Virus record (IMG/VR): IMGVR_UViG_3300013901_000001
DNA from: a virus
Reading direction: 5' to 3' (one strand)
Length of the DNA: 64,000 nt
This document shows, piece by piece, positions 6,177 through 57,835 of this stretch (its first letter is position 1; the number at the start of each line of letters is the position of its first letter). The notes below the pieces were generated by a model. That model saw nothing but the letters and a program-made list of their open reading frames with translations. It was not told the origin of the DNA and ran no database searches. The translations under genes and the position numbers were made by a program.

Positions 6177-6452
6177 GAGGGTGCTTCCGTGAATCAGATG
6201 AACATATTTGATTTAATTAGAAAACCTATACAGATTACAAAGCCGATTCGTCTCATAGAATTATTTGCCGGGTATGGAAGCCAATCAATGGCATTGAAAA
6301 GAATTGGTGCAAACTTTGAGCATTATAGGGTTGTGGAATTTGATAAGTTTGCCATTGCAAGCTATAACGCAGTGCACGGAACAAATTTTCAAGCATTGGA
6401 CATTACAAAAATTCATGCAAATGATTTGAACATCTGTGATACAGAATCATTC

Positions 6453-6474
6453 ACTTACTTACTTACTTACTTAC
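6453..6474 (+). repeat. tetranucleotide repeat (ACTT)5+AC inside the methyltransferase, just before motif IV
   Basis: Read directly; removing one unit gives ...SFTYLLTYSFPCTDLS... in one frame. Confidence 0.95.
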
Positions 6475-6950
6475 TCGTTTCCTTGCACAGATCTTTCCGT
6501 AGCTGGGAAACGAGCCGGAATGAGTAAAGAAAGTGGAACAAGATCTGGACTTCTGTGGGAAGTGGAAAGAATACTTACTGAAATCAAAGAAGAAAAAGAA
6601 GAACTTCCACAGATTTTATTTATGGAGAATGTACCACAAGTGCATAGTTCGGATAATATGCCGGATTTTAGAAAATGGATAGATTTTCTTGAAAGCCTTG
6701 GTTACAAAAATTATTATCAGGACCTTAACGCAAAAAATTATGGAGTGGCGCAAAACCGTGAACGATGTTTTATGTTTTCGTTTCTTGGAGAATATAATTA
6801 CCATTTTCCACAGCCGTTTCCTCTTGAAAAGAAGTTAAAGGATTATTTGGAAGATAATGTTGATGAAAAGTATTACATCAATAATGAAAAATCCAAAAAG
6901 TTGATAAAGCAGCTTATTGACAACGGAACACTTCCTCAACACAATCTTGA

Positions 6951-7005
6951 GAGCAGAGCAGAGCAGAGCAGAGCAGAGCAGAGCAGAGCAGAGCAGAGCA
7001 GAGCA
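6951..7005 (+). repeat. pentanucleotide repeat (GAGCA)11 inside the methyltransferase
   Basis: Read directly; encodes (EQSRA)n in all three frames, so there is no stop in any frame. Confidence 0.95.
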
Positions 7006-7294
7006 AACTTGCGTTGACGGAACAATCTGCAATCCACAAAGAAGAAAGATTGCGAACTGTATCATGGCAAGAGACTACGGAATCTCAACACAGTCACAGA
7101 CAGGAAACCTTGTTGTTAAAAGGAATGTCAAGTAATAAATACGATCCATATGCAGAAAAAGCAGATATTTCAAGAACCATATGCGCTAGGGATTATAAGG
7201 GCTTAAATAATTTTGGACAGAATGGAGTAATTGAATGGAAATCATAGGAAGTATATACACGGGAGTTTCAGACGGATATCAGCACGGAATCTTA

Positions 7295-7418: not shown

Positions 7419-7427
7419 GGGGGGGGG
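7419..7427 (+). repeat. G9 homopolymer at a frame break in the methyltransferase
   Basis: G10 would join ...SRIYGVGGG to VSPTLSTMQGGNQ. Confidence 0.9.
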
Positions 7428-7989
7428 TGAGTCCTACGTTAAGCACAATGCAAGGTGGTAATCAAAAACCGAAAATACTTGAAGTAAAACAGCTAGGATT
7501 TATGGAAAACGGAACTGGAAAACATCAGTCCAATACTGTATACGATGAAAACTCATTATCCCCTAGCATAACAACGGTTGAAAATGGTGGTACGCAACAG
7601 ATTAAAATATGCGAAAGCCAAATAGTTGCCATGCGTGGAAGAAATCCAGATAATCCGTCCGACAGAACTGCAGGAAGTCCAACGGAACAAAGACTTGAAT
7701 TAAATAAACATGAAACAAGTAATTGCATTACAAGTGTTCAAAAAGACAATATGGTTATGGAAAATCCCACATATCGCATAAGAAAACTTACCCCGAGAGA
7801 ATGCGGTAGACTTATGGATGTATCAGACGAAGATATTTCCAAAATGGAAAAGGTAAATAGCAACACGCAGCTATACAAACAGTTTGGAAATTCTATTGTA
7901 GTAGGTGTTATGTGCGAGATGTTTAAAAATTTAAACATAAATCAATAAGACCGGACAGTTCCGGTTTGCATAGTTTGGAGGAAAAGAAA

Positions 7990-8556
7990 ATGAAAGTAAA
8001 AAGAACAGTAACAATGAAAGTTAGCCATTTTGGGGTTGGAGACCAGATTACCGTAAAACTTCCAGAATACGGAAAGTTTACGGCTATGGCACATGAGATC
8101 ACGGACAAAGGAACATTATTTATCTTCGATGATTGTGTTTGCGAAAGATGGATGAACAAAGAAAATACGAATGAAGGTGGATATTTGGAATCTGACCTTA
8201 GAAAGTTTGTAACACAGGAGTTGCTAAAGGCATTTCCAGATAAACTGCTTGTAAGGATGGTAAAGGACGATAACGGAGATCTACTTTCCATTCCGACTTA
8301 CGGACAGGTTTTGGGTAAAGACTGGGACGATGAGTGGGATGAGAAAAACATTGAGATCGACAAGAGAGAACAATTGCCACTGATGCAGAAAAGAAAGAAC
8401 CGGATTGCAGATTTACAAAACGAATGGACATGGTACTGGTTGCAAAATAAAGTCCGGTCGTCGTCTCACTTCGCTCGCGTCGATGGCGATGGCCGTGCGG
8501 CCAACTACGGCGCGTCTGGCTCCGGCGGGGTTCGTCCGGCTTTCCTAATCAAGTAA
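7990..8556 (+). CDS. DGR target protein 1 (C-type-lectin-like variable C-terminus)
   Basis: GGAGG then ATG 7990; ends ...WYWLQNKVRSSSHFARVDGDGRAANYGASGSGGVRPAFLIK; 3' end matches the TR. Confidence 0.85.
   Translation: MKVKRTVTMKVSHFGVGDQITVKLPEYGKFTAMAHEITDKGTLFIFDDCVCERWMNKENTNEGGYLESDLRKFVTQELLKAFPDKLLVRMVKDDNGDLLSIPTYGQVLGKDWDDEWDEKNIEIDKREQLPLMQKRKNRIADLQNEWTWYWLQNKVRSSSHFARVDGDGRAANYGASGSGGVRPAFLIK
8453..8538 (+). repeat. DGR variable repeat VR1
   Basis: Gap-free match to TR 56391-56476; 17 of 18 differences are at TR adenines. Confidence 0.85.
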
Positions 8557-8564
8557 TCATTAAT

Positions 8565-8585
8565 CCGCGCCCCTTGTGGGCGTGG
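8565..8585 (+). promoter_or_regulatory. GC-rich hairpin downstream of VR1 (DGR homing-associated type)
   Basis: CCGCGCCC-CTTGT-GGGCGTGG, 8 bp including one G-T pair, 27 nt after the VR. Confidence 0.7.
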
Positions 8586-8621
8586 AAATGGAAGTAAATT
8601 GAAGATTAATGGAGGTAAACC

Positions 8622-8930
8622 ATGAAATATTTAATTGAATTAGAGCCAATCAAAGGAACAAACCTTTATAAGGCGAAGGGATTTAACACACTGGTTTTTG
8701 ATGAATACGGATTGCAACAGCTTACACCGGTTGAAGAGTTTCATAGGATTCCGGTAGTCGGAGATACCATAAGAACAGAAAACGGAACCACCCTTTATGA
8801 ATTTAGAGGTTACGACGAAAACGGAAGAACCAATGCGGTAAATATAACAAATGGATCGTATGTGAATTTGAGAAGCGACCATATCATCGTTGTAGACGAT
8901 AAAACTAATCCGGAAAAAATAGAGTGCTAA
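8622..8930 (+). CDS. hypothetical protein
   Basis: GGAGG upstream; 102 aa. Confidence 0.5.
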   Translation: MKYLIELEPIKGTNLYKAKGFNTLVFDEYGLQQLTPVEEFHRIPVVGDTIRTENGTTLYEFRGYDENGRTNAVNITNGSYVNLRSDHIIVVDDKTNPEKIEC

Positions 8931-9758: not shown

Positions 9759-11135
9759 ATGGATTACGAAGAGTTTTTAAAGAATAAAAGATTTGTTTTA
9801 GAAAGTAGTGGATTCGATATTGATAAATCCCAATTAAATCCGATGCTATACGACTTTCAGAAAGACATAGTTCGGTGGGCATTGAAGAAAGGAAAAGCCT
9901 GTATATTTGCAGATTGCGGACTTGGGAAAACACCTATGCAGTTATCGTGGGCGCATCAAGTTCACATGCATACTGGTGGGGATGTTCTTATTCTTACACC
10001 ATTAGCTGTTGCCGAACAGACAAAGCGAGAGGCTGAAAAATTCGGATATGATGCAAAAGTAGTTGATAAACAGGATGATTGCATCAACGGAATAAATATA
10101 ACGAACTATGAAAAGCTGGACAGGTTTGCTGCGAATCATTTTTCCGGAATTGTTCTTGATGAGAGCAGTATTTTGAAATCTTACAGTGGAAAAGTAAGAA
10201 CTGCCATTATTCAGAATTTCCATGAAGTTCCTTACAAATTAGCTTGCACAGCTACTCCAGCACCAAACGATTATATGGAATTGGGGAATCATTCGGAATT
10301 TTGTGGAGTGATGACAAGACCAGAAATGCTATCAATGTTCTTTGTGCATGATGGTGGAGAAACATCGAAATGGAGATTGAAAGGTCATGCAGAGGATGTG
10401 TTCTGGCAGTGGCTATCTACATTTAGCGTATTTGTTGATAATCCGAACAATATCGGATACGAGATTGATGGATATAATCTACCAGAACTTAAAATAAAAG
10501 AAATAATTGTGGATGGGGATACGACAACAACAGAGAACTTGACATTAACAGAACGGAGACAAGCGAGAAAGGATAGCTTGCAAAAAAGATGCGAATGTGC
10601 ATCAGAACTTGTAAATAATTCTAATGAGCAATGGCTTGTATGGTGTGACTTGAATGATGAAAGCCATAAGCTGCATGAATTAATCGAAGAAAGCGTTGAA
10701 GTTGAGGGAAGTGATAAAGAACAACACAAGTCTTCAGCCATGCTTGATTTTAGCAATGGGAATATAAAGTGTCTTGTTACAAAACCTAAAATTGCCGGAT
10801 TTGGGATGAATTGGCAGAACTGTCATAACATGATTTTTACCGGACTTTCGGATAGTTATGAGCAGTATTATCAGGCTCTCCGCAGATGTTGGAGATTTGG
10901 CCAGAGTGAACAGGTGAATGTTTATATTATCATTTCATCAAAAGAAGGATGCGTGAAAGAAAACATTGAAAGAAAGCAGAAAGACTTTGCAAAAATGCAG
11001 AAAGAAATGACAGAACTCACAAAGGAAATAACAAAAAAAGAACTAAGGAGTACGTGTAGGATTTCCACACCATATGAACCGCAAATACATCTAACTTTAC
11101 CGATGTGGGATGAATTTAAGAAAGGAAATGAATAG
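9759..11135 (+). CDS. SNF2/DEAD-like superfamily 2 helicase
   Basis: GLGKT Walker A, DESS box, TATPAPN, QALRRCWRFGQ motif VI. Confidence 0.85.
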   Translation: MDYEEFLKNKRFVLESSGFDIDKSQLNPMLYDFQKDIVRWALKKGKACIFADCGLGKTPMQLSWAHQVHMHTGGDVLILTPLAVAEQTKREAEKFGYDAKVVDKQDDCINGINITNYEKLDRFAANHFSGIVLDESSILKSYSGKVRTAIIQNFHEVPYKLACTATPAPNDYMELGNHSEFCGVMTRPEMLSMFFVHDGGETSKWRLKGHAEDVFWQWLSTFSVFVDNPNNIGYEIDGYNLPELKIKEIIVDGDTTTTENLTLTERRQARKDSLQKRCECASELVNNSNEQWLVWCDLNDESHKLHELIEESVEVEGSDKEQHKSSAMLDFSNGNIKCLVTKPKIAGFGMNWQNCHNMIFTGLSDSYEQYYQALRRCWRFGQSEQVNVYIIISSKEGCVKENIERKQKDFAKMQKEMTELTKEITKKELRSTCRISTPYEPQIHLTLPMWDEFKKGNE

Positions 11136-11136
11136 A

Positions 11137-12063
11137 ATGGACGTTTTAGCACAGACAATAGAAAAGAATTATGCAATTTACAATGGAGATAGTTGCGAAC
11201 TGATTAAGGCAATTCCGAATAATAGCATTCATTACACTATTTTTAGTCCACCATTTGCAAGCCTATATACTTACTCCAACAGTGATAGGGATATGGGAAA
11301 CAGCAAGGGAGATGATGAATTTTACGAACACTTTAAATTCCTAGCAACAGAACTTTATAGGGTAACGATGCCTGGACGATTGCTTTCGTTTCACTGCATG
11401 GATTTACCACTAATGAAAGAAAGGGATGGCGTGATCGGATTAAAAGATTTCCCGGCACTTGTAAGACAGATTTTTGAAGATTGCGGTTTTATTTATCATA
11501 GTAAGGTGACGATTTGGAAAAATCCGGTCACAGAAATGCAGAGAACTAAGGCACATGGGCTTCTTCACAAGCAAATAAGGAAAGACAGTACAATGAACAG
11601 GCAAGGAATCCCAGATTACATTGTTACGATGCGGAAACCGGGCGAGAATCCAGAGAGAGTATCGCATACACATGAAACATTTCCTGTTGATGTGTGGCAG
11701 AATTACGCAAGTCCTGTATGGATGGATATTCGGCAGTCTGATACATTGCAAAAGAAGTCTGCAAGGGAAAACAAGGATGAGCGTCATATCTGTCCGTTAC
11801 AATTAGAAGTAATTCAAAGATGCATTGAATTATGGACGAATAAAAATGACATAGTTTTAGATCCGTTTGCCGGAATTGGCAGCAGCCCATACGTTGCTGT
11901 TACGATGGGGAGACGTGGCATAGGATTTGAACTTAAAGAAAGCTACTATAAACAGGCTGTTGCAAACCTTGAAGCAGCAGTAAGTTTTAATAAGATGGAT
12001 TGCCCGGTAGGTCAAATGTCAATTGAGGATTTTTTAGGGGAGAATGTCTTGCAGTGCAGTTAA
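11137..12063 (+). CDS. DNA methyltransferase, N6-adenine/N4-cytosine class
   Basis: SPPF catalytic motif near the N-terminus and DPFAGIGSS AdoMet motif near the C-terminus. Confidence 0.85.
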   Translation: MDVLAQTIEKNYAIYNGDSCELIKAIPNNSIHYTIFSPPFASLYTYSNSDRDMGNSKGDDEFYEHFKFLATELYRVTMPGRLLSFHCMDLPLMKERDGVIGLKDFPALVRQIFEDCGFIYHSKVTIWKNPVTEMQRTKAHGLLHKQIRKDSTMNRQGIPDYIVTMRKPGENPERVSHTHETFPVDVWQNYASPVWMDIRQSDTLQKKSARENKDERHICPLQLEVIQRCIELWTNKNDIVLDPFAGIGSSPYVAVTMGRRGIGFELKESYYKQAVANLEAAVSFNKMDCPVGQMSIEDFLGENVLQCS

Positions 12064-12133
12064 CCATATTCGATTATGAATAAAAATATTCTGATTGGAA
12101 TAAAAAAATTCATGGAACTTGAAAGGAGTAAAA

Positions 12134-12697
12134 ATGCCAAAACATTATGATGATCCACAGGAAATTGCAAGAATGATGTTGGAATTGAAGCGTTTACGGC
12201 AGACGGCGCAGAGAAGTCCGTTTACAGGATTGCTTACCATTTTCTGCTATGTCTTGTGGAAAGATTACAAATACAGTCAGACGAAACTTGCGAAATTCTG
12301 CGAGGACTTTTCAAAGTACGATGCAGAATATGACGGACAGAATATTTCCAAACTTGATAACGGGTTATGGGATTATGCCGATTGGAAAGTGGAATTTACG
12401 CCGTATACTGAAAAGGATTATCCGTTTTACAAGTCCCCTATGGCACAGAAAGTAGTACGGGAACAGGTGAAAGCCAACAACGAAATTAATGAGAAAGCGA
12501 CGAGGTATTTAACCTACGGATTTACGGTTTTGATGAATGACGGAACGAAGAAACAGAAGTTGACAAACATCAAAGATAAAATCCAGAAGCGCATTGATGA
12601 AGTGACCGCCGATGAAAGAGACAAGTGCATCATGGATTTGTGGAAAGAGTTGGTTGACGAAGCCGGAATTTACATTGAGAAACCGGTGATCGATTAA
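12134..12697 (+). CDS. hypothetical protein
   Basis: AAAGGAG then ATG 12134. Confidence 0.5.
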   Translation: MPKHYDDPQEIARMMLELKRLRQTAQRSPFTGLLTIFCYVLWKDYKYSQTKLAKFCEDFSKYDAEYDGQNISKLDNGLWDYADWKVEFTPYTEKDYPFYKSPMAQKVVREQVKANNEINEKATRYLTYGFTVLMNDGTKKQKLTNIKDKIQKRIDEVTADERDKCIMDLWKELVDEAGIYIEKPVID

Positions 12698-14688: not shown

Positions 14689-14705
14689 AAATGGAGGGTT
14701 TTAAA

Positions 14706-15275
14706 ATGAAAGCATGGAGAAAAGTAAAAATGGAGATCAAAAACTATAAGGTCGGAGATCAGATCGCGGTGAAACTCAAAGGTTTTGGGAAATTTACGGC
14801 TACGGCGCAGAGAGTTTATGACGATGGAAAAACGCTGTTTCTTTTCGATAACTGCGTTGCAGAACGGCATATGAACGAAAACGGTTCAAATTCCGGAGGT
14901 TTTTATGAATCCGACTTATGCAAGTGGATGAATACAAAATTGGTGAAAACTTTTCCTGCTAAACTTCTTGACCGCATGATTTATACGGACGAAGAGCATG
15001 AATGTCTGCTTCGAATTCCGACAAGAAAGGAAATGTTCGGAGAGAATGAATATAGCGAAAATTACGAACCTGATTTAGACAAACAGCTTGAACTTATGAA
15101 AGACAGAAAAAATCGTGTATGCTCACTTCCTGATGATGAATATGCATGGTATTGGTTGATGAACGCGAATATCCGGTCGTCGTCTGGCTTCGCTTGTGTC
15201 CCTAGCCGTGGCACTGCGCTCACCGGCGACGCGTCTGCCTCCCTCGGGGTTCGTCCGGCTTTCCTAATCAAGTAA
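14706..15275 (+). CDS. DGR target protein 2, paralogue of target 1
   Basis: GGAGG then ATG 14706; VGDQIAVKL...GGFYESDL...WYWLMNANIRSSSGFACVPSRGTALTGDASASLGVRPAFLIK. Confidence 0.85.
   Translation: MKAWRKVKMEIKNYKVGDQIAVKLKGFGKFTATAQRVYDDGKTLFLFDNCVAERHMNENGSNSGGFYESDLCKWMNTKLVKTFPAKLLDRMIYTDEEHECLLRIPTRKEMFGENEYSENYEPDLDKQLELMKDRKNRVCSLPDDEYAWYWLMNANIRSSSGFACVPSRGTALTGDASASLGVRPAFLIK
15170..15257 (+). repeat. DGR variable repeat VR2
   Basis: 88-nt gap-free match to the TR; all 19 differences are at TR adenines. Confidence 0.9.
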
Positions 15276-15283
15276 TCATTAAT

Positions 15284-15304
15284 CCGCGCCCCTTGTGGGC
15301 GTGG
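15284..15304 (+). promoter_or_regulatory. GC-rich hairpin downstream of VR2
   Basis: Identical to the VR1 hairpin; the ~70 nt after both stops are identical. Confidence 0.7.
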
Positions 15305-15341
15305 AAATGGAAGTAAAATTAAAATTTCGGAGGTAAAGTAG

Positions 15342-15929
15342 ATGGCACGATATAGAGCAAAATCATGTGAAATTGAAGCAATTCAATGGACTGATAATAC
15401 AAATGAAATAAAATCATTTTGTGGAAATAGTTGCACATATTCCGTAGAAGAACAGTGCATGGGAAGTTGGAAAGGCATTCCGATCGAGAGATTGGTTATT
15501 CACACATTGGAAGGAGATATGGTTGTAAGCAGAAACGACTACATCATAAAAGGATTGAAAGGTGAATTTTATCCATGCAAGCCAGATGTATTTAACCAAA
15601 AGTATAAATTAATAAATGATACTATGGAAATACAAGAAGAGCAGAGATGGATACCGGTAACTGAAAGGCTGCCGGAAGAACTTACACCAGTAAATATTAC
15701 GTGGATAAATAGAAATCCTGAACAATATTATGCGGATATAAAGGATGTTCCTTTTTCCGCTACAGGAGTTTTTCATCGCGGAAAGTGGTATTGGTGGTCG
15801 GTAGTAGTTGTTGATTATCTTTCGGAATATGGAAGATATGACATGGATTTAGTAGATAAAGATATTGAAATTGTAGCATGGCAACCATTACCGGATCCCT
15901 ACAAAGGAGAAAATAACCACAATATGTAG
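15342..15929 (+). CDS. DUF551-like domain protein
   Basis: C-terminal WIPVTERLPEE...VAWQPLPDPY pattern. Confidence 0.55.
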   Translation: MARYRAKSCEIEAIQWTDNTNEIKSFCGNSCTYSVEEQCMGSWKGIPIERLVIHTLEGDMVVSRNDYIIKGLKGEFYPCKPDVFNQKYKLINDTMEIQEEQRWIPVTERLPEELTPVNITWINRNPEQYYADIKDVPFSATGVFHRGKWYWWSVVVVDYLSEYGRYDMDLVDKDIEIVAWQPLPDPYKGENNHNM

Positions 15930-15956
15930 CAATCCCGGATCGCAAGATTTGGTATG
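15914..15956. repeat. 43-bp repeat, copy 1 (imperfect palindrome; candidate recombinase or regulator site)
   Basis: TAACCACAATATGTAGCAATCCCGGATCGCAAGATTTGGTATG; 40/43 identical to 28374-28416, same orientation. Confidence 0.85.
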
Positions 15957-16489: not shown

Positions 16490-16551
16490 ACTATTATCAA
16501 TGCACTGCCAGACGGATATTTAATTCCATTTGAAAGAGAGTGAGGTATAGC

Positions 16552-17190
16552 ATGGAATATGGATATGTTAGAGTTTCTTCTAAAGAACAAAATGAAGCTA
16601 GGCAACTTGACGCGCTACGCAAACAGGGCATAGAGGATTGTAATATCTACACGGACAAGCAATCCGGAAAAGATTTTAATAGACCAAAATACAAAACTTT
16701 ATATCGAAAATTAGGAAAAGGAGATATTTTGTACGTAAAAAGCATTGATCGTATGGGGAGAAATTACGACGAGATAATTCAAGAATGGCGTAGAATTACG
16801 AGATTCCGTGAGGCTGATATTGTAGTTCTAGATATGCCATTACTTGATACGAGACGAGGAAAGGATCTCATGGGTACATTCTTAAGTGACATTGTTTTAC
16901 AAGTTCTTTCTTTCGTGGCAGAAAATGAACGTACCAACATTAAGCAAAGGCAGGCAGAGGGAATTGCTGCAGCAAAAGCAAGGGGAGTGAAATTTGGTAG
17001 ACCACCATTGCCAATACCGGAAAACTTTTATCAGATGTACAAAGACTGGCGGGCAGGGAAAATCACAATAGAAGAAGCTGCAAAGGCTTGTAATATGTGC
17101 CCTAAGACATTTTATAGTAAAGCTGTAAAATATGAAAGAGAGGAACAAGATGAACCAGTGTTGTGGAACGTGCAAATGGCACAGTTTTGA
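16552..17190 (+). CDS. small serine recombinase (resolvase/invertase family)
   Basis: MEYGYVRVSSKEQNEARQ...SIDRMGRN catalytic domain plus C-terminal HTH. Confidence 0.85.
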   Translation: MEYGYVRVSSKEQNEARQLDALRKQGIEDCNIYTDKQSGKDFNRPKYKTLYRKLGKGDILYVKSIDRMGRNYDEIIQEWRRITRFREADIVVLDMPLLDTRRGKDLMGTFLSDIVLQVLSFVAENERTNIKQRQAEGIAAAKARGVKFGRPPLPIPENFYQMYKDWRAGKITIEEAAKACNMCPKTFYSKAVKYEREEQDEPVLWNVQMAQF

Positions 17191-18272: not shown

Positions 18273-18503
18273 ATGAAAGGGAAACGGCTTATGAAGTTTT
18301 CAAGACTTACAAAGCCGGAACTTGAAAAAATACTTCAAAATGCCAATTTTACGAAAGACGAAGAAGAAATATTTAAGGACCTGTCTAGGGGAATTTCTGA
18401 AAAAGAAATATCCCTTAGACATTCTATATCCGTAAGTACGGTTGAAAGAAGAACACGCCGTATCAAGGAAAAAATAAAAAGATTAAACAGGAGTGAGAAA
18501 TGA
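18273..18503 (+). CDS. small sigma-70 region-4-like HTH protein
   Basis: EKEISLRHSISVSTVERRTRRIKEKI; immediately precedes and overlaps the integrase. Confidence 0.5.
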   Translation: MKGKRLMKFSRLTKPELEKILQNANFTKDEEEIFKDLSRGISEKEISLRHSISVSTVERRTRRIKEKIKRLNRSEK

Positions 18504-19747
18504 GTCTTTCTGATAACGAATTATTGAAGTATGCCGTTGAAAATGGTATGATTGACACGGCACTTTTACGAAAAGAATTAGAAATGCGCAGAAGAGAGGA
18601 GATATTATCAAAACACCCATATCGTATATGGCAAGGAAATGACGGAAGGTGGAGAACATATTTACTTCCGGAAGACGGTAAAAGGAAAATGGTAAACCGT
18701 CAGACCGAAAAGGATTTAAAGGATGTTGTTGTTAGCTTTTATGAAGAAAACGAGAAGCATTCTTTTAAAAACCGATACGATGTATGGGTACAAAGACAAG
18801 AAAATTGTGGACGAGCAGAAAACACAATATACAAATACGAAACGGACTATGATCGTTTTTTCAAAGGAGATCCTTTTGAAAGAATGAAAGTAGAAAATAT
18901 TACAGACGAAGATATTTCTTTAATGATTATTGACCTTTTAAAAAGAAAAGATATTCCATACAAGGCATTAAAGGGAATGTTTGGGTACATGAACGGAGTC
19001 TTTGAAAAGTGTATCATTGACAAAATTATCAAAGAAAATCCTTGTAAATACATAGATTTGCCGATATATAAGAAATACTGCAAGGAATCAGGAGATAACA
19101 GAGTCGAAAGCAGAACATTATCTAGGGACGAAAGTAAAAGCCTTTTGGAGAAACTGGACGATTCTTACCAAAAGAAACCGAATTACATTGTTCAATACGC
19201 TTTGGAATTTTCAATGTATACCGGAATGAGAGTGGGGGAGTTATCAGGGTTAAGTTGGGATTGCATTGATTTTGAAAGGAAGACATTGACTATTTGCAAA
19301 TCAGAAAAATTTAATCGGAAAAGCAAGACGTATTATATTTCTTCAACTAAAAATGACAAAACAAGGGTAATTCCTCTTACAAAACAAATGGAAGAAGTGC
19401 TTTTAAAAGTCCGAAGTATAGAAGAGGAAAATGGGTTTTTAAGCGAATTTGTTTTTTCTGATTCAAACGGGAGAGTTCATTGCAGAAGAATTTCTGATTG
19501 TGCAAGAAACAGAACAATGTCGAAAGAATTTTCCAAGCCAAAAAGTATACACGCAATAAGGCGAACTGTAAACTCGGAATTACGTTGCAAAGGTGTTCCG
19601 GCAGTCGTAGCTGCATCACTTATTGGTAATACGGAAAGAGTCAACGAAAGCAATTACAGCTATGACATATCCGGAATGGAATATAAGTCTTCCGTATTCG
19701 CTGAAATAAACAAAGATATTCGTGATTACAGAAATAATCAAAAGTAA
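18500..19747 (+). CDS. int: tyrosine site-specific integrase
   Basis: N-terminal arm-binding-type segment (WQGNDGRWRTYL), MRVGEL, HAIRRT box, C-terminal Tyr region. Confidence 0.9.
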   Translation: MSLSDNELLKYAVENGMIDTALLRKELEMRRREEILSKHPYRIWQGNDGRWRTYLLPEDGKRKMVNRQTEKDLKDVVVSFYEENEKHSFKNRYDVWVQRQENCGRAENTIYKYETDYDRFFKGDPFERMKVENITDEDISLMIIDLLKRKDIPYKALKGMFGYMNGVFEKCIIDKIIKENPCKYIDLPIYKKYCKESGDNRVESRTLSRDESKSLLEKLDDSYQKKPNYIVQYALEFSMYTGMRVGELSGLSWDCIDFERKTLTICKSEKFNRKSKTYYISSTKNDKTRVIPLTKQMEEVLLKVRSIEEENGFLSEFVFSDSNGRVHCRRISDCARNRTMSKEFSKPKSIHAIRRTVNSELRCKGVPAVVAASLIGNTERVNESNYSYDISGMEYKSSVFAEINKDIRDYRNNQK

Positions 19748-24211: not shown

Positions 24212-25450
24212 ATGAAGATTTGTCCTATTTGTGGTGCGGAAAACGAAGATAACCGCATCATCTGTAAAGAATGCGGTTTTGGAATGGAATTGGAGGAAGA
24301 TACGCAACCAGTAATGCAACAGCAAAGCGTTCCTTATCGTAAACCAGAGAGGAAAACCGGTCTTGCACTTGCTTCGCTGATTTGTGGAATTATCGGTTTG
24401 GTTCTTTCATGTGTCGTTATTGGCATGGTTCCGTCTGTAATCGCATTAATTCTTGGAATTATTGCACTTACCCTAACAGAAGTTAAAAAGCAGAAGGTAA
24501 TGGCGATTGTAGGAATCTGCTGTTCCGTTCTTGCCACTTTGATTTCTATTGTGGCACTTGCGCTGTTTTTTGGTTCTGGCAGTTCTTCGAGTAGCGGAGA
24601 TTCAAACAGCAAGGCAGACAACGACACCAAAGAAGAAACGATAATTGATATGATTCAAGGTGATTCCAAAGAGCAGTTTATTAGCGAATGCGAGGACTTT
24701 AACTACAAAGATCTTGCCCGTGATCCGAACGGAAACATTGGAAAGAAGATCAAACTGGAAGTAAAGGTTCAACAGATTTTAACACAGGGCAAGAAAACCT
24801 ATTACAGAGTCAATATGAACGATGAGTATGGATTCTGGGGCGGTGGCGAGTTTATCATGTGGGATAACCGCAAAGACGATGACATGAAAATCCTTGTCGA
24901 TGATATTCTCATGGTTTATGCGGAATTTGACGGTACAGAAAGAATGGTAAGGGCATTTACAGACACCGAAGAAGATGTTCCGTCCATAAAGGCATATTAT
25001 GTGGAACTTCTGGACGAAGATGATTACACCTATGATTTTACTGGTGGTTCAACGGCAAATACCTTAAGCGAAGAAGTTTTGAATGACGGTACGATTGATA
25101 CGGATTTTGGAAACTTTACTCTGAAATATACCAGATATGAACTGTCGGAAGATTACGAGGGTAAGCAATGTGTCATAATCTATTTTGACTACACGAATAA
25201 TTCCGAAGAAAATTCCTGTTATTCATGGATGGCAAATGTGCAAGTGTTCCAGAATGGTATAGAATGTGGCGATGCATTTATACTGGACGATGACAACAAA
25301 GCATTGAATAATGATATGACGGAAGTCAAGAAAGGAACAACTATCAGTGTCGCATCTGCATTTTATATTGACGGATTGGACGATATTGAACTTGAATGTG
25401 GTGTTCTTTACGGCGGTTCGGTCGATACCATGACAATACAATTACAATAG
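24212..25450 (+). CDS. zinc-ribbon membrane protein with extracellular beta-rich domain
   Basis: CPICG..C.ECG, three hydrophobic helices, S/G linker, large C-terminal domain. Confidence 0.6.
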   Translation: MKICPICGAENEDNRIICKECGFGMELEEDTQPVMQQQSVPYRKPERKTGLALASLICGIIGLVLSCVVIGMVPSVIALILGIIALTLTEVKKQKVMAIVGICCSVLATLISIVALALFFGSGSSSSSGDSNSKADNDTKEETIIDMIQGDSKEQFISECEDFNYKDLARDPNGNIGKKIKLEVKVQQILTQGKKTYYRVNMNDEYGFWGGGEFIMWDNRKDDDMKILVDDILMVYAEFDGTERMVRAFTDTEEDVPSIKAYYVELLDEDDYTYDFTGGSTANTLSEEVLNDGTIDTDFGNFTLKYTRYELSEDYEGKQCVIIYFDYTNNSEENSCYSWMANVQVFQNGIECGDAFILDDDNKALNNDMTEVKKGTTISVASAFYIDGLDDIELECGVLYGGSVDTMTIQLQ

Positions 25451-28373: not shown

Positions 28374-28416
28374 TAACCACAATATATAGCAATCCCGGAT
28401 CGCAAGATATTGTATG
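28374..28416. repeat. 43-bp repeat, copy 2 (better palindrome)
   Basis: TAACCACAATATATAGCAATCCCGGATCGCAAGATATTGTATG; 17-nt arms around the central C match at 14/17. Confidence 0.85.
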
Positions 28417-30839: not shown

Positions 30840-30859
30840 AACACTACTGATATACCTAA

Positions 30860-30982
30860 ACAATCTCAACGTAAATAAAGCCAATAAACTATCGTTTAGC
30901 CAATACATTGTTTTTATAACACTCTCAACGTAAATACTACTAATAACTTACCGTGTAGCCAATAACTTATATTTATAACACC
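30860..30982. repeat. two ~59-nt tandem direct repeats (CTCAACGTAAATA...TAGCCAATA...TTTATAACAC)
   Basis: Units start at 30865 and 30924; roughly three quarters identical by eye. Confidence 0.7.
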
Positions 30983-32713: not shown

Positions 32714-33298
32714 ATGAAGATTGGATATGTAAGAGTTTCAACAGTGGATCAGAATGAAGATCGACAGATTGAAGGACTTGAAAAGTATGGGATTGAAAAG
32801 TGGTACATGGAAAAGGTTTCTGGAAAAAACATGAACCGGGAACAATTACAGGAAATGCTTTCCTGCATAAAAGAAGGAGATACGGTTTACGTACATGATT
32901 TTAGCCGATTGGCAAGAAGCACCAAGGATTTGTTGGAAATTGTAGAATCCCTTAATAAAAAGAGCGTGCACCTTGTAAGCAATAAGGAAAACATTGATAC
33001 ATCTACTCCACAAGGAAAATTGATGGTGACAATGCTTGCTGCAATTTATGAGTTTGAGCGAACTAATATGCTTGAACGTCAGGCAGAGGGAATTGAAATT
33101 GCAAAGAGAAAAAAGGTTTACAAGGGAAGAAAGCCGAAAGATATTTCCAGAGAGCAAGTAATTGACGGTCTTAAGAGATACAAAGCCGGACTTGTTACGA
33201 AAAAGGATCTTGCAAAAGAAATCGGGGTTTCGATCCCCACACTTAACAAGAACTTTGATGAATTTGATTTTTGGAACAGTGAAGATGGTGAAGAATGA
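32714..33298 (+). CDS. small serine recombinase (resolvase/invertase family)
   Basis: MKIGYVRVSTVDQNEDRQ...DFSRLARS...C-terminal HTH; 194 aa. Confidence 0.85.
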   Translation: MKIGYVRVSTVDQNEDRQIEGLEKYGIEKWYMEKVSGKNMNREQLQEMLSCIKEGDTVYVHDFSRLARSTKDLLEIVESLNKKSVHLVSNKENIDTSTPQGKLMVTMLAAIYEFERTNMLERQAEGIEIAKRKKVYKGRKPKDISREQVIDGLKRYKAGLVTKKDLAKEIGVSIPTLNKNFDEFDFWNSEDGEE

Positions 33299-33441: not shown

Positions 33442-33514
33442 AGGGATATCGCCAAGCGGTAAAGGCACAGGATTTTGATTCCTGTATTCGTGGGTTCGAA
33501 TCCCACTATCCCCG
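33442..33514 (+). tRNA. tRNA-Gln (anticodon UUG), no encoded CCA
   Basis: Cloverleaf folded by hand: TCGCCAAGCGGTAAAGGCA D-arm, CAGGA-TTTTGAT-TCCTG, GTGGG-TTCGAAT-CCCAC. Close to my recollection of E. coli tRNA-Gln. Position 1-72 is A-C. Confidence 0.8.
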
Positions 33515-33982: not shown

Positions 33983-34747
33983 ATGATCTTGAATTGCATA
34001 AACTGTGGTGCACCGATTGATAATACAAAAACAAAATGCCCGTATTGCGACACTCCATATAAGTTAAATGGATTTGCTGGTGAGATTTCAGAGGAAAGTA
34101 ACTGCGGAGTGTTGAATATAGGCGGTCATTTCTACGATGACTATTTGTCCAGTGTAGAGGTAGGGGATTACGGATACATGGGATATAGGGATGCCACAGG
34201 AAGGTCGATAAGAGAAGTAAGAAACATTCACAGAACGTTACGTTGGAGACTTACTAACATGATGATAAATATTTTGTTTCTTGTGGATTCAATAGAAGAC
34301 GCTGCATTAGAAACATACATAACTGAAAATGTCGTGAAAGATAAACGAGGGATTTTTGACATTGATTACGAATATGCGATGATAAGCATTAATAACATAA
34401 AAGTGTGGTTTTGCGCTCCAGAAGCTGAAAGATGCATTTCTCCAATATTGTTTTGTGATTGTGTAGTTGTAGATGTAAATACGGCTAAAGGAATTTTGGA
34501 AAAAGAAAATCTGCAAAGAATGCGTAAAACGATACCGTTTTATGACAGATCTTGTTTTTATAAGACAATGATTGACGAATGGGAGAGGAAGAACGTGAAA
34601 AAGAGTATTATTGACCGTTGGAAGAAGCATGGAGAATTTACAAGGCGTTGCATGATAGCCGGATTTTCAAAAGATTTTATTCCTACACGGTTTGAATATG
34701 CAATTACAGGCACTAAACTTCATAAGTTAATCTATGGGAGAAACTAA
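33983..34747 (+). CDS. zinc-ribbon N-terminal hypothetical protein
   Basis: CINCGAP..CPYCDTPY; 254 aa. Confidence 0.5.
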   Translation: MILNCINCGAPIDNTKTKCPYCDTPYKLNGFAGEISEESNCGVLNIGGHFYDDYLSSVEVGDYGYMGYRDATGRSIREVRNIHRTLRWRLTNMMINILFLVDSIEDAALETYITENVVKDKRGIFDIDYEYAMISINNIKVWFCAPEAERCISPILFCDCVVVDVNTAKGILEKENLQRMRKTIPFYDRSCFYKTMIDEWERKNVKKSIIDRWKKHGEFTRRCMIAGFSKDFIPTRFEYAITGTKLHKLIYGRN

Positions 34748-35092: not shown

Positions 35093-35265
35093 AAAAGAAA
35101 ATGGAACGGATTATTGACTTTTTGGATTCTTTTTTCTATTATCCAAAGATGAAGAGATATTTTATCAATAAGGGGTTGTTTAGCTACAATCCTTGGCAAG
35201 ATGAAAAATTTGCCAGAATAAAATATGCGTGGTGGCATTGTCATCACGGAAGATTGAGAGATTAA
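35089..35265 (+). CDS. small hypothetical protein (58 aa)
   Basis: ATGA overlap with the upstream gene; below the ORF-track cutoff. Confidence 0.35.
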   Translation: MKKKMERIIDFLDSFFYYPKMKRYFINKGLFSYNPWQDEKFARIKYAWWHCHHGRLRD

Positions 35266-35348: not shown

Positions 35349-37124
35349 ATGTCTGTTGAACTCCAACAAACAGTTCAAGGGTATGAAAATTACATAAAAC
35401 AAAACGGAATTGATGCACAAGCAATAGACGCATACGTTGAAGCGTGCAATTTTGCCATAAGAAAAGAAAAAGATATTTCATACGGATTGAAATTGACTAA
35501 TCATGCTAAAAAGTTGATAGAAAATTATTGTGTTTCAAAAACCGGAGTTTCAATTTGGAAACTTGAAAAATATGCACAAGAAAATAAATCTGAATACGGA
35601 TTGATAGATCAATATTATGAACTGCTAAAACTGGAAAGCTTCTGGAAACTTGAAAGCTATATATTTTTTATGGAGCGTAAAAGACCTTGCGGAAAAAGGT
35701 TTTATTACCCAAGAAAGAAAACCTTAAAAAAGGTTTTGGACGATCTGGAAGATCTTGAAAACAGAGTTATCTCTTTTTATGGTTTATCATTGCCGTCAAG
35801 AACCGGAAAATCAACTTTATGTATCTTTTTTCTTTCGTGGATAGCATTAAAAAGACCTAACAGCCATTCCGCTATGGGAGGTCATTCCGGAATACTTGCA
35901 AAAGGATTCTATAAAGAATTAATGAATCTTTTTACGACAAACGAATATTGTTTTGCAGAATTATATTACTTCTGGCATCCGGAATATGAAAACACTATTA
36001 TACCAACAGATAAAAGCGCAGATGAATATACAATTACTTTAGGTGATCCGGATAGATTTGCAACGATTACTTGCAGAGGTATTGACGGAACATGGACGGG
36101 AGCTGTTGATGTATCAGGGGACGGATATTTGTACGTAGACGATTTAGTAAGAGACAGAGAGCATTCATTAAGTCCGTCACGTATGGAAAATACATATCAA
36201 GAGTACTTGAACAAAATGGTTGACCGAAAAAATGACGGTTCCCGTGAATTAATGGTTGGTACTTTGTGGAATGTGCTTGATCCTCTTGAAAGATTAAGAA
36301 AACAGTATGACGGAAACCCAAAATACAGATTCAGAAAGATTCCGGCGCTTGATGATAATGATGAGAGCAATTTTGACTATGAAATAAATGGATTTTCAAC
36401 AGAATACTACCGCGATATGAGAGAGAAACTTGATAAAGCAGAATGGGAAGCAAAATTTATGCAACGTCCTTTTGTACGAGAAGGACTGCTGTTTCCTACT
36501 GATGAATTAAGATATTTTAACGGAATTTTACCAGAGGGAGATTTTAGAAGAATTGGTGTTACTGATATTGCGTGGGGAGGTGGAGATAGCCTGTCGATGC
36601 CTATCGGAGCGGAATATGAAAACGGAGACGTATATATTTATGACTGGGTATTTAATTCCGGGCCAAAAGAAGTAACAATTCCTCTTGTCGTCGGAAGAAT
36701 CATGGGAAATGAGATACGACAAACAAGATTTGAGGGAAACGTTGGTGGAGATCTTTATTGCCAGTACGTAGATGAAAAACTGCAAGAACAAAATTACAAA
36801 TGCTCTTGTACAAGCAAAAAAGCGTCAAATAAAATCGAAAAATTATCCAAAATCATCGCATATTCTGGAGATATAAAGCGAAAGTTTATATTTCTTGAAA
36901 GCAAAAAGCCTACACAAGAAGAACTTGAACACGATGCAGAAATGGGAATTGTACGATACAGACGTACAGATGAGTACCAAAAAGCAATGGACGAATTGAC
37001 AATGTTTGTAAGTATTGGAGGAAATGAACATGACGATGCGGCGGACGGACTTACACAGCTTGAAATGTTCATTGAAAATCCGGCATCGGTAAAAGTAGCA
37101 AAAATTATTCAGAGTCCAATTTAA
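35349..37124 (+). CDS. terL: terminase large subunit
   Basis: AAAGGAGG then ATG 35349; Walker A SRTGKST, LYVDDLV Walker B-like, nuclease-type C-terminal half; followed by the portal gene. Confidence 0.85.
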   Translation: MSVELQQTVQGYENYIKQNGIDAQAIDAYVEACNFAIRKEKDISYGLKLTNHAKKLIENYCVSKTGVSIWKLEKYAQENKSEYGLIDQYYELLKLESFWKLESYIFFMERKRPCGKRFYYPRKKTLKKVLDDLEDLENRVISFYGLSLPSRTGKSTLCIFFLSWIALKRPNSHSAMGGHSGILAKGFYKELMNLFTTNEYCFAELYYFWHPEYENTIIPTDKSADEYTITLGDPDRFATITCRGIDGTWTGAVDVSGDGYLYVDDLVRDREHSLSPSRMENTYQEYLNKMVDRKNDGSRELMVGTLWNVLDPLERLRKQYDGNPKYRFRKIPALDDNDESNFDYEINGFSTEYYRDMREKLDKAEWEAKFMQRPFVREGLLFPTDELRYFNGILPEGDFRRIGVTDIAWGGGDSLSMPIGAEYENGDVYIYDWVFNSGPKEVTIPLVVGRIMGNEIRQTRFEGNVGGDLYCQYVDEKLQEQNYKCSCTSKKASNKIEKLSKIIAYSGDIKRKFIFLESKKPTQEELEHDAEMGIVRYRRTDEYQKAMDELTMFVSIGGNEHDDAADGLTQLEMFIENPASVKVAKIIQSPI

Positions 37125-45580: not shown

Positions 45581-45609
45581 CTATGCCGTCTATTTTGCGA
45601 GGTGAGATT

Positions 45610-54948: not shown

Positions 54949-55788
54949 ATGGCAATTAATAAAGTGGAATATAGCGGAAATACATTAATTGACTTGACTT
55001 CTGACAGCGTAACACCGGAATCTTTACTTTCCGGCGTTACCGCACATGATGCGTCTGGAAATTTGATTATAGGAGAACTTAATCCGCAAAGAATATTTGA
55101 TAATGCCGGATATCACAACAGTATTTTTCGTGGAAAGAACTTGGGAACGGCTGTTCCGGAAGAACAATACGAAGCTATTTCTTCCGGAGAGTTCACGGAT
55201 TTGTATGTAGGTGATTACTGGACTTTAAACAACGTTGTTTACCGTATTGCCGGATTTGATCTGTTTTTACATACGGGGGATACAGAGTTAACAACGCATC
55301 ATGTTGTTATTGTGCCGGATAAAAATATGTACAGTCACGTGATGAATGATACAAATGTGACCACCGGCGGTTACTACAATAGCAAAATGAAACAAAGTGG
55401 TCTGACACAGGCTCTGACTACGGTAAAGGCGGCATTCGGTGAAAGCCACATAGTAAAAAGAAGAGTAATTTTAACAAATGCCACAAATGGAGATAATCCA
55501 TCCGGATGGGCGTGGTACGATACCTACATTGACCTTATGACAGAACGGCAGGTATATGGATCTCCTGCATGGGGACAGGCGGCACATAATGGATATGATG
55601 CCGGATGTGAGTATTCAAGACTTCCGTTGTTTGCACTTGCACCGGAATTTATCACAAATAGAGAATGGTATTGGCTACGAGATATCCGGTCGTCGTCTGG
55701 CTTCGCTGGTGTCTCTGGCCAGGGCCGTGCGACCGACGCCGACGCGTCTCGCTTCGGCGGGGTTCGTCCGCTTTTTTTAATCTCTTAA
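54949..55788 (+). CDS. DGR target protein 3 (fibre-attachment N-terminus plus variable lectin-like C-terminus)
   Basis: Ends ...EWYWLRDIRSSSGFAGVSGQGRATDADASRFGGVRPLFLIS. Confidence 0.9.
   Translation: MAINKVEYSGNTLIDLTSDSVTPESLLSGVTAHDASGNLIIGELNPQRIFDNAGYHNSIFRGKNLGTAVPEEQYEAISSGEFTDLYVGDYWTLNNVVYRIAGFDLFLHTGDTELTTHHVVIVPDKNMYSHVMNDTNVTTGGYYNSKMKQSGLTQALTTVKAAFGESHIVKRRVILTNATNGDNPSGWAWYDTYIDLMTERQVYGSPAWGQAAHNGYDAGCEYSRLPLFALAPEFITNREWYWLRDIRSSSGFAGVSGQGRATDADASRFGGVRPLFLIS
55683..55770 (+). repeat. DGR variable repeat VR3
   Basis: 88-nt gap-free match to the TR; 19 of 21 differences are at TR adenines. Confidence 0.9.
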
Positions 55789-55798
55789 TCGTCAATCA

Positions 55799-55815
55799 CC
55801 GCCCCATGTGGGCGG
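55799..55815 (+). promoter_or_regulatory. GC-rich hairpin downstream of VR3
   Basis: CCGCCC-CATGT-GGGCGG. Confidence 0.7.
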
Positions 55816-55838: not shown

Positions 55839-56366
55839 ATGTCAGAAATACCAAAGTCAAGAAGAAAAGAATCAAAATTAGAAGTAATTCACAAAGCGTA
55901 TAAATTACGAGCTAGAATAACAAATGAACTAATATGCAGCTTCGGATATTCTCAAAAGAAATATGAAGCACATTTAAACAAAGCGGTAAGACATATTCGG
56001 GACGAAACAGAACGCGAGGAAAAGAAAGAAGTTCTGCGCAAAATGGAAGGAAATTTTGATTTCTGGATTATTGAAAAAGAAAGAGACGATATTCTACATT
56101 ACACAAAAGGAATCGTAAATCATCTTATATCTGCAAACACAATATATCCGGTTAATGTATCGGAATATGAAGAACGCAGATTGGAAATGGATAGAGCGTT
56201 GGTGTGTTGCACGTGTCTTCAACAGGAATTGCAGTACATCGCAGAAGTTCTTCCGTCTGACAAGAATAAGTACATGAACATAGTGCTTGAAATTCAAACG
56301 ATCCGAGAAATGATAAAAGGGCTTCGCCAATCCGACAACAGATTTTTAAGAGATATCAATAAATAA
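55839..56366 (+). CDS. avd: DGR accessory variability determinant (Avd-like)
   Basis: GAAAGGAG then ATG 55839; basic helical 175-aa protein between the target and the TR. Confidence 0.7.
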   Translation: MSEIPKSRRKESKLEVIHKAYKLRARITNELICSFGYSQKKYEAHLNKAVRHIRDETEREEKKEVLRKMEGNFDFWIIEKERDDILHYTKGIVNHLISANTIYPVNVSEYEERRLEMDRALVCCTCLQQELQYIAEVLPSDKNKYMNIVLEIQTIREMIKGLRQSDNRFLRDINK

Positions 56367-56388: not shown

Positions 56389-56476
56389 TATCCAGTCGTC
56401 GTCTAACTTCGCTAATGTCAATAGCAATGGCAATGCGAACAACAACGACGCGTCTAACTCCAACGGGGTTCGTCCG
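56389..56476 (+). repeat. DGR template repeat (TR)
   Basis: Non-coding; 23 adenines, variable codons AAC/AAT; matches VR1-3; ends in GGGGTTCGTCCG. Confidence 0.9.
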
Positions 56477-56611
56477 ATTTCACAACTACCTACTTGACAT
56501 AGATTCTACTGGTAGCAATGGGAAAGGAAAGGTTATCCGTTCAGCGGAAGCTGATAAAAGAAAATTCCGATATGCCGAGTTACGACAAGGTATTAGAAAC
56601 GGGGTTAAAAT

Positions 56612-57835
56612 ATGAATCCATTAATAGATGCAAATAGTTTATATGACGCCGGAACATTGGCGATAAAAAGTAGCAGCTTCAAGTACAAAACGCAATTATT
56701 TGAAATGAACCATCTTTTGGAAACTGCATTATTACAGAAAGAATTGCAAGAAGGAACGTACAGACCGGAAAAAGGAACAAAATTTCTGATCCATGAAAGA
56801 GGAAAAATCAGATACATCACAAGCAATACCATGAGAGATAAAACAGTCAATCATGTGTTGTGTGATGAAATCGTCACACCATCCATAGAAAAATATTTGA
56901 TCTATGATAATAGTGCTTCACAGAAAGGCAAGGGGATTTCTTTTGCCAGAAAGAGACTGGAAGAACATTTGCATAGTTATTATAGGAAATACGGGACAAA
57001 TGACGGCTACATCTTGTTGATGGATTTTTCAGGTTATTATGCGAATATTCCACACGATAAATGCAAGGACATTCTGTATAGAATGGTTTTCCGAGACGGA
57101 CTTGAAGAAGAACCGACCAAAGCAGTGATTGAAAATATTTTTAAATCCTACGAAATGGATGTTTCATATATGTCTGATAAAGAAATAAAAGTCTTGTATA
57201 GCACAAAGGTAGATCCTGTAATGAACCAAAACGTTCCGAAAGAATTGCTTACAGAACAAAAGATGCTAAAGAAAGGAGCGGACATAGGAAATCAGCTTGC
57301 TCAAGCAATAGGAATTACTTTTCCTTATAAGATTGATAATTATGTGAAAATCGTAAGAGGATGCAAATTTTACGCCAGATATACGGATGACAGCTATATT
57401 ATTTCGAGCGATAGGGAATTTTTGTTTGATGTTTTGGACGGTATTAAAGAAATTGCGGATGAACATGGAATCATATTGAACAAAAAGAAAACGAGGATAG
57501 TAAAGATTTCCTCGTTTTTCAGATTTATGCAGATAGGATATTCCCTAACTGCCACAGGAAAAGTGATAAAGAAAATAAATCCTAAAAATGTGAGAAGGGA
57601 AAGGGTGAAGCTGAAAAAATATAAAAATTTGTTAGATAATGGAAAAATGACATATGCAGACATAGAAAATTGCTTTAAGTCTTGGATATGTACATACTGG
57701 AAAATTATGTCGCACCAACAATTATACAATATGAACGCCCTGTATAAGGAGCTGTTTGGAAAGGGAATAAAATGGAAAACGAAAAATTCACGATTACATT
57801 GGCTGATGGAACACAAATCACCGGACTTTCGATGA
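56612..57835 (+). CDS. DGR reverse transcriptase
   Basis: RYTDDSYII (YxDD box), IGNQLAQ, finger/palm spacing; directly downstream of the TR. Confidence 0.9.
   Translation: MNPLIDANSLYDAGTLAIKSSSFKYKTQLFEMNHLLETALLQKELQEGTYRPEKGTKFLIHERGKIRYITSNTMRDKTVNHVLCDEIVTPSIEKYLIYDNSASQKGKGISFARKRLEEHLHSYYRKYGTNDGYILLMDFSGYYANIPHDKCKDILYRMVFRDGLEEEPTKAVIENIFKSYEMDVSYMSDKEIKVLYSTKVDPVMNQNVPKELLTEQKMLKKGADIGNQLAQAIGITFPYKIDNYVKIVRGCKFYARYTDDSYIISSDREFLFDVLDGIKEIADEHGIILNKKKTRIVKISSFFRFMQIGYSLTATGKVIKKINPKNVRRERVKLKKYKNLLDNGKMTYADIENCFKSWICTYWKIMSHQQLYNMNALYKELFGKGIKWKTKNSRLHWLMEHKSPDFR

Follow-up and report, generated by a model that had tools for sequence, protein, structure and literature searches.

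A variable repeat in an early-region gene is a very probable trans target of a three-target DGR in a temperate gut phage

The DNA analysed here (hereafter, the window) comprises the 64,000 nt of the viral record IMGVR_UViG_3300013901_000001 (IMG/VR) and contains one diversity-generating retroelement (DGR), with an Avd-like gene, a template repeat (TR), a reverse transcriptase (RT) gene, and three target genes that each end in a variable repeat (VR1, VR2, and VR3; Table 1). The TR and the three VRs form a four-copy repeat family (8451–8542, 15170–15261, 55683–55774, and 56389–56480), of which the last, adenine-rich copy is the TR. No fourth VR was found, either in the window or in the remaining 3.3 kb of the genome. 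Target gene 1, at the left of the window, had been proposed to carry a remote VR with a gap-free match to the TR, and re-alignment reproduced this match exactly, including the 18 differences, 17 of them at TR adenines. The coding sequence was also borne out, with a product of 188 aa and the C-terminal end that the original prediction had quoted. VR1 and TR align over 86 nt, and the sole non-adenine difference is a T>C change at 8478 (TR codon AAT vs. VR codon CGC), which is common to three independent assemblies and is therefore not a sequencing error. Using a hypergeometric test (89-nt block with 25 adenines), the probability that at least 17 of the 18 VR1 mismatches fall at adenines is ~2e-11. 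VR1 spans 13 adenine-bearing TR codons, including ten AAY codons (the others are CAG, AGC, and GAC), which correspond to ~4e13 protein variants per target under the genetic code.

Table 1 Features of the DGR and of its three targets, in window coordinates.
Feature	Position	Strand	Description
Target gene 1	7990 (ATG)..8556 (TAA)	+	188-aa single-domain DUF6273 protein, C-terminus ...WYWLQNKVRSSSHFARVDGDGRAANYGASGSGGVRPAFLIK
VR1, variable repeat	8453..8538	+	18 mismatches vs. TR 56391–56476, 17 at TR adenines
GC-rich core of IMH (initiation of mutagenic homing element), GGGGTTCGTCCG	8527..8538	+	Present in TR and all three VRs
Target-side block	8539..8598	+	VR1 and VR2 100% identical over 60 nt; not templated by TR
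GC hairpin after VR1	8564..8586	+	9 pairs including one G·T, loop CTTGT, 26 nt 3′ of IMH core
Target gene 2	14706..15275	+	189-aa DUF6273 paralogue; Pfam E = 2.7e-11, 44.1 bits vs. cut-off 23.5
VR2	15172..15257	+	19 mismatches vs. TR, 19/19 at adenines
Hairpin after VR2	15283..15305	+	Identical to VR1 hairpin
Target gene 3	54949..55788	+	279 aa, last gene of tail module
VR3, cassette-linked	55685..55770	+	21 mismatches vs. TR, 19 at adenines
Hairpin after VR3	55799..55815	+	6-pair GC core, loop CATGT, longer outer stem; z = -3.75
Avd-like accessory gene	55839..56366	+	175 aa, between VR3 and TR
Template repeat (TR)	56391..56476	+	Adenine-rich, 23 adenines in 86 nt
Reverse transcriptase	56612..57835	+	407 aa; RVT_1, E = 7e-13

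The cassette lies 3′ of the tail module (tape-measure gene at 45583–49914, tail genes up to 54934), and lysis genes and a repressor come after it. The Avd-like protein matched phrog_3206 (‘Avd protein of DGR’) weakly (E = 1e-4) and had no sequence match in Pfam, NCBIfam, or PDB. The RT contains the motifs SQ (aa 103–104) and YTDD (aa 257), and among solved structures its best match is 8ub7 (an RT of 328 aa; E = 2e-8), which we take to be the bRT of phage BPP-1. A search of GTDB genomes with the RT returned only two matches of ~50% identity, both on short MAG contigs. The TR is identical in six out of seven related contigs. One contig (L011 2280–2365; ERZ26859195 NODE_285) carries a TR with four A>G changes (TR offsets 65, 66, 71, and 72) that are absent from its own VR1, VR2, and VR3, so that either the template mutated later than the last homing events or the element lies dormant in that lineage.

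The target 1 protein matched Pfam PF19789 (DUF6273; E = 1e-8, 35.7 bits vs. gathering cut-off 23.5) and phrog_21980 (E = 7e-54), and it was called as a 188-aa gene in every related contig whose fetched stretch includes this position. Neither a signal peptide nor a transmembrane segment was found in the protein (hydropathy maximum 0.63), and hydrophobic segments are absent from both small target proteins. Target 2, which also belongs to phrog_21980, shares 50% protein identity with target 1 (BLASTP); its gene has an alternative ATG at 14691 and was called as 189 aa in related contigs. The C-terminal domain of target 3 is homologous to targets 1 and 2, with 31% identity between aa 113–279 of target 3 and aa 36–188 of target 1, even though the VR3 protein remains below the Pfam DUF6273 gathering cut-off (23.5). 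This identity extends across the whole domain, in agreement with the earlier proposal that the VR1 protein has the same scaffold as the fibre-linked target. The N-terminal ~45 aa of target 3 resemble the start of the upstream tail-fibre-like gene, and the small targets do not contain this segment.

The GC core GGGGTTCGTCCG has exactly four copies in the window (8527, 15246, 55759, and 56465; 0.06 expected from shuffles), which close the TR, VR1, VR2, and VR3 and occur nowhere else. Beyond the core the copies continue as GCTTTCCTAATC... (VR1 and VR2), CTTTTTTTAATC... (VR3), and ATTTCACAACTA... (TR). The 60-nt block shared by VR1 and VR2 consists of the end of the gene (six codons and the stop), a spacer, the hairpin, and another 12 bases, and it includes the 3′ part of the IMH, whereas the sequence after the TR differs. 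The identical VR1/VR2 stretch totals 73 nt (8526–8598), and identity returns to chance 3′ of 8598. Upstream of the VR, a gap-free comparison likewise puts the two genes at chance nucleotide identity; inside the VR their non-adenine positions agree, as is expected if one template is copied into both. The 30 nt that follow each copy of VR1 and VR2 are identical in every related contig, and the target-side sequence of VR3 keeps the VR1/VR2 pattern with 44 identities out of 72.

A GC block and an 8-bp GC hairpin had been predicted after VR1, and both are present. The 8-pair stem (8565–8585) includes one G·T pair, T8564–A8586 adds a ninth pair, and the DNA fold has a z-score of -2.6 vs. shuffles. 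No such hairpin was found 3′ of the TR in the window. Hairpins with 5-nt loops lie 25–27 nt after the GC core in seven VRs from three phage lineages (the present phage, Fontainebleau, and JGI contig L037) and in none of three TRs, and their stems differ in sequence between lineages while the pairing is kept. Two other readings of this region were rejected: the hairpin is not terminator-like (no T-run lies behind it), and nothing marked VR1 as a transcription unit of its own (sites that resemble promoters or terminators are no commoner than in shuffles). The GC core, the hairpin, and the 60-nt block are conserved despite 50% protein identity between the VR1 and VR2 proteins, and VR1 looks homing-competent, as had been suggested. 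Judged from these alignments, the homing elements of VR1 are present and under constraint, and the 60-nt block is a candidate minimal target-recognition element for this DGR group.

Related contigs of 66–68 kb were found in many ENA metagenomes, and in two of them the window end joins the window start via 3,304 nt, with flanks that are 100% identical. Related assemblies of 67,359 and 67,423 nt equal 67,304 nt plus k-mer overlaps of 55 and 119, which makes the assembled genome a circle of 67,304 bp. In the forward direction from the TR, past the lysis, lysogeny, and early genes, VR1 is reached at 19.3 kb and VR2 at 26.0 kb. The distance of 47.9 kb between VR1 and TR that was first reported is correct in window coordinates, but it depends on where the circular assembly was cut and is no physical property of the element, given that the other arc of the circle measures 19.3 kb. 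A tyrosine integrase is encoded at 18500–19747, and if attP adjoins it, integration would keep the TR and all of the VRs together on the shorter arc. The predicted neighbours of the VR1 and VR2 genes include C5-methylase fragments, an SNF2-like helicase, an N6/N4 methylase, and a DnaD-like loader, as well as a helicase loader, an HTH protein, and a DUF551 protein. By this gene content, the two genes sit in a replication/DNA-modification module, and early expression of the VR1 gene would fit its surroundings.

Several other features were recorded in the genome. The C5 cytosine methylase upstream of VR1 is split into three ORFs (6189–6527, 6436–7017, and 7427–7948), and intact C5 methylase genes of 310 to 535 aa exist in some related contigs. 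A 43-nt direct repeat (93% identical; 15914–15956 and 28374–28416) brackets a 12.46-kb segment with a serine resolvase (16540–17190), the tyrosine integrase (18500–19747), and a membrane protein (24212–25450); the repeat copies may bound a nested mobile element in the manner of attL/attR, or they may be a regulatory site that occurs twice. The window encodes, at 16540–17190 and 32714–33298, two small serine recombinases with a Resolvase domain, which are paralogues and share DNA stretches with ~73% identity. Two tandem 59-nt units (78% identical; 30859–30976) lie in a non-coding stretch at ~30.4–31.2 kb where GC skew falls to about zero, and they may represent an origin or a regulatory region. 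The only known RNA family found was tRNA-Gln (33442–33514). In the 3.3 kb outside the window, a protein with a Spo0A C-terminal domain is encoded (L032 7161–7529), a hint that the host may be a spore-forming member of the Bacillota. By TerL, uncultured faecal phages and a Clostridium innocuum phage are nearest. No close relatives were found among GenBank phages (megablast with the VR1–VR2 region and with the cassette), and the adenine-masked TR pattern had no match in IMG/VR.

Natural variation was assessed in the assembly consensus sequences of related phages. Among 13 independent metagenome contigs that represent this ~67.3-kb phage, VR1 has six alleles; VR2 has six alleles in 7 samples, and VR3 has seven alleles in 7 samples. 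The original prediction had recommended a comparison of related genomes and had made inter-isolate variation at TR-adenine positions its own test; VR1 passed this test, being polymorphic at all 23 TR-adenine positions vs. 5 of the 63 other positions (Fisher p = 2e-16). The corresponding counts were 23/23 vs. 1/63 in VR2 and 22/23 vs. 3/63 in VR3. Taken over the 19 alleles of the three VRs, the DGR signature amounts to 328 changed adenine cells out of 437, compared to 13 out of 1197 other cells, with 0–2 stray non-adenine changes per allele at each VR. None of the 19 distinct alleles is common to more than one of VR1, VR2, and VR3. Contigs L001 and L003 differ at 18 of 86 VR1 bases, compared to 71 of 6245 bases elsewhere; five of these 71 differences lie within ~1.1 kb upstream of VR1, none in the next 1.6 kb downstream, and most sit in a recombinant patch of the helicase gene. 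At the protein level (49 cluster-representative homologues of 188 aa), the ten most variable columns are the ten AAY codons, and mean entropy is 2.61 bits at adenine codons vs. 0.53 bits elsewhere.

Identical VR1 alleles recur in up to three samples each, and given this recurrence VR1 rewriting may be episodic, or absent in a given lineage. Two VR1 alleles other than that of the window carry changes inside the GC core (a T>C allele in three samples and a G>A allele in two), and VR1 alleles with an intact core recur as well, so that these counts give no clear sign that core changes freeze VR1. The allele combinations a1+b1, a1+b2, and a5+b2 were seen, showing that recombination also moves these loci between phages. 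Three contigs (L027, L028, and L031) end 55–80 nt before the DUF551 gene, just after VR2 (about 15263–15288 in the window). Such breaks are expected from the 73-nt VR1/VR2 identity, which is longer than common assembly k-mers, and are therefore no sign of within-sample heterogeneity. As read from the contigs compared, VR1 has undergone repeated rewriting in natural populations, to about the extent seen in the cassette-linked VR3. This phage itself shows how the repeats are built, that changes are specific to adenines, that the target-side elements are conserved, and that VR1 has been rewritten again and again in the wild.

We conclude that VR1 very probably works as a trans target of the single DGR in this phage, a temperate tailed phage of ~67.3 kb found in gut metagenomes. 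For the cDNA route, and for what the IMH and the hairpin would do, we follow the analogy with Bordetella phage BPP-1. The TR would be transcribed, and the RT, probably with the Avd-like protein, would make a cDNA with misincorporation opposite template adenines. This cDNA would replace VR1, targeted through the 3′ end of the repeat, i.e., the GC core and then the target-only block with its hairpin. Rewriting would alter 13 codons in the C-terminal loop region of the 188-aa DUF6273 protein. The same TR would also serve VR2 and VR3, which corresponds to standard mutagenic homing in trans with three targets.

Recurring alleles could also be explained if VR1 in the window genome were a frozen relic, written by the DGR in the past, with inter-contig variation that is old. 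Three other samples carry the same VR1 allele as the window, two more alleles are each seen in 2–3 samples, and the T>C change at 8478 is what would be expected if point mutations accumulate after the last homing. In addition, the four A>G changes in the L011 template that are unmatched in its own VRs show that lineages can go long without homing, and phages Lelie and CP11 had no read-level signal at their VRs (PMC11792537). However, the window VR1 retains an unbroken GC core and 60-nt target block, and contigs with ~1% background divergence carry completely different VR1 sequences. VR1 is also as polymorphic as VR3, whose alleles recur too (the window and ERZ808271 share one). We therefore consider a relic quite unlikely.

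Alternatively, VR1 might not be a homing site at all, and its diversity might have come from the true targets (VR2, VR3, or those of other phages) through recombination or gene conversion. The 73-nt identity between VR1 and VR2 (8526–8598) could support gene conversion, and the a1+b1, a1+b2, and a5+b2 combinations show that these loci are shuffled between phages. This explanation is extremely unlikely, because no allele is shared between the VRs (0/19), VR1 retains its own complete set of target-side elements, and every VR1 allele consists of adenine-only changes to one TR plus 0–2 stray changes.

The fold of the VR1 protein was modelled with AF2 (pLDDT 80, pTM 0.81), and the model is confident except in the VR loop. 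Foldseek against PDB returned a sole match, the DUF6273-bearing IgA peptidase 9qa6 (E = 4e-3), and did not return Mtd or TvpA; matches in BFVD were DUF6273 proteins (TM 0.66). Thus, the statement that the VR1 protein has a lectin fold rests on published models, in which DUF6273 is C-type-lectin-like (PMC10743442; bioRxiv 2024.10.15.618418). The homologue search yielded 572 sequences. Longer homologues of the VR1 protein (269–308 aa) have N-terminal extensions that match only families of unknown function, and these are therefore uninformative on virion attachment. A 231-aa homologue (P0058) starts with ~30 residues (MKYEIEVEKIEGTELYKAKGFNTLVF) that resemble the start (MKYLIELEPIKGTNLYKAKGFNTLVF) of the 102-aa protein encoded at 8622–8930, just 3′ of VR1. 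This likeness could reflect a fusion, gene-calling read-through, or a functional link with the 8622–8930 protein.

Our best guess is that the VR1 protein is a diversified accessory protein for ligand binding, that it acts on surface molecules of the host or the gut, and that it is either virion-borne or released at lysis. A different role has to be weighed, in which the small DUF6273 targets are cytoplasmic early binding proteins that recognise changeable host factors (e.g., defence or restriction proteins). Points noted for this intracellular role are the position in the replication module and the lack of a signal peptide and of a tail-anchor segment; the small target occupies an early-region position in at least four unrelated phage lineages. 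The small targets had no defence-family match (PADLOC). We consider the intracellular role unlikely. If true, it would give the phage an antibody-like counter-defence repertoire, which would be much more surprising than an accessory for surface molecules.

The system described here can be compared with the founding DGR of BPP-1 (Mtd, Avd, TR, and bRT). In both, an adenine-rich TR adjoins the RT, and the GC-rich IMH core in TR and VR is followed by target-only sequence and, at a short fixed distance downstream, by a GC hairpin. In BPP-1, a 14-bp GC element is followed by a 21-bp element and, a few bases on, by the hairpin, which would match the arrangement found here. The hairpin loop has 5 nt here, unlike the 4 nt of BPP-1. 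BPP-1 has one target, a tail-fibre receptor-binding protein encoded directly upstream of the cassette, whereas the present phage has three targets, two of them 19–26 kb off in the replication module, and its Avd similarity is marginal.

Closer parallels exist among gut phages. In Faecalibacterium phage FP_Toutatis, a remote DUF6273 target lies 17,480 nt from the TR (bioRxiv 10.1101/2024.10.15.618418). The only other annotated DUF6273 gene of that phage, gp24 (11505–12152), is located about this far away on the circle, in the early region, with DNA methyltransferases ahead of it and the replication initiator behind it. Phages Lelie and CP11 have large and small DUF6273 targets (Gulyaeva et al., PMC11792537), and CP11 shows adenine-specific variation at both VRs in alignments of related genomes (PMC11792537). 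Like the present phage, Toutatisvirus (Egorov & Atkinson), Lelie, and CP11 combine a cassette-linked target with a small remote DUF6273 target that carries a C-terminal VR; unlike it, they are unrelated myoviruses with two targets, the linked one being Hoc-like or Ig-bearing. Their small targets were not found by tblastn with the VR1 protein because they are too diverged. In Roseburia phage Shimadzu, ~2% of virion reads are mutated at both VRs (Cornuault et al., bioRxiv 10.1101/575076). Shimadzu has two VRs, the first within a tail gene that precedes the RT and the second within a gene whose function is unknown, and it differs from the present phage in being a relative of the myovirus Lagaffe and itself a myovirus. 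In gut phages nd4 and nd12, two DUF6273 targets belong to each DGR (Baykov et al., PMC10743442). Target 2 of nd4/nd12 is, as here, a single globular DUF6273 domain modelled as C-type-lectin-like, whereas the VR of target 1 is near the N-terminus (‘tentaclins’) and the targets are presented within the DGR cassette (PMC10743442).

The best annotated relative of the VR1 protein (tblastn; 45% identical, 189 aa) is encoded by Acutalibacter phage Fontainebleau (ON453893), a cultured OMM12 prophage, in a gene that is annotated as hypothetical and located between DNA polymerase I and a helicase. Its small VR (9800–9882) differs from the TR (35105–35187) at 14 positions, 14/14 at adenines, and the cassette VR (34390–34472) lies in a 311-aa protein just upstream of the RT (35351–36376), which itself lies after the tail genes. 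Shared with the present phage are the motif ...GVRPAFLI at the C-terminus and a hairpin that follows the GC core by ~27 nt; Fontainebleau differs in its 39-kb genome and in having one small target instead of two. In the Fontainebleau record, this two-target DGR appears only as a ‘reverse transcriptase’ plus hypothetical proteins, and neither DGR nor reverse transcriptase is mentioned in the paper that names the phage (PMC10197239). The same layout is found in JGI contig L037, whose remote VR lies 9.1 kb beyond the TR and has 19 mismatches, 17 of them at adenines. Given that Fontainebleau is cultured and inducible, the role of the small target is open to experiment.

The layout of a cassette-linked target plus a small remote target has therefore already been described in other gut phages, and, with Toutatis, Lelie/CP11, Shimadzu, and nd4/nd12 published, the kind of system found here is not new. 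What is new is a well-supported case with three targets, the recurring early-region placement across lineages, and a sharply bounded 60-nt target block. The phage provides a clean natural example in which one DGR template has three targets and the distant two are rewritten approximately as much as the linked one. The recurrence, in unrelated gut phages, of a small lectin-like target among replication and DNA-modification genes sharpens the question of its ligand and timing.
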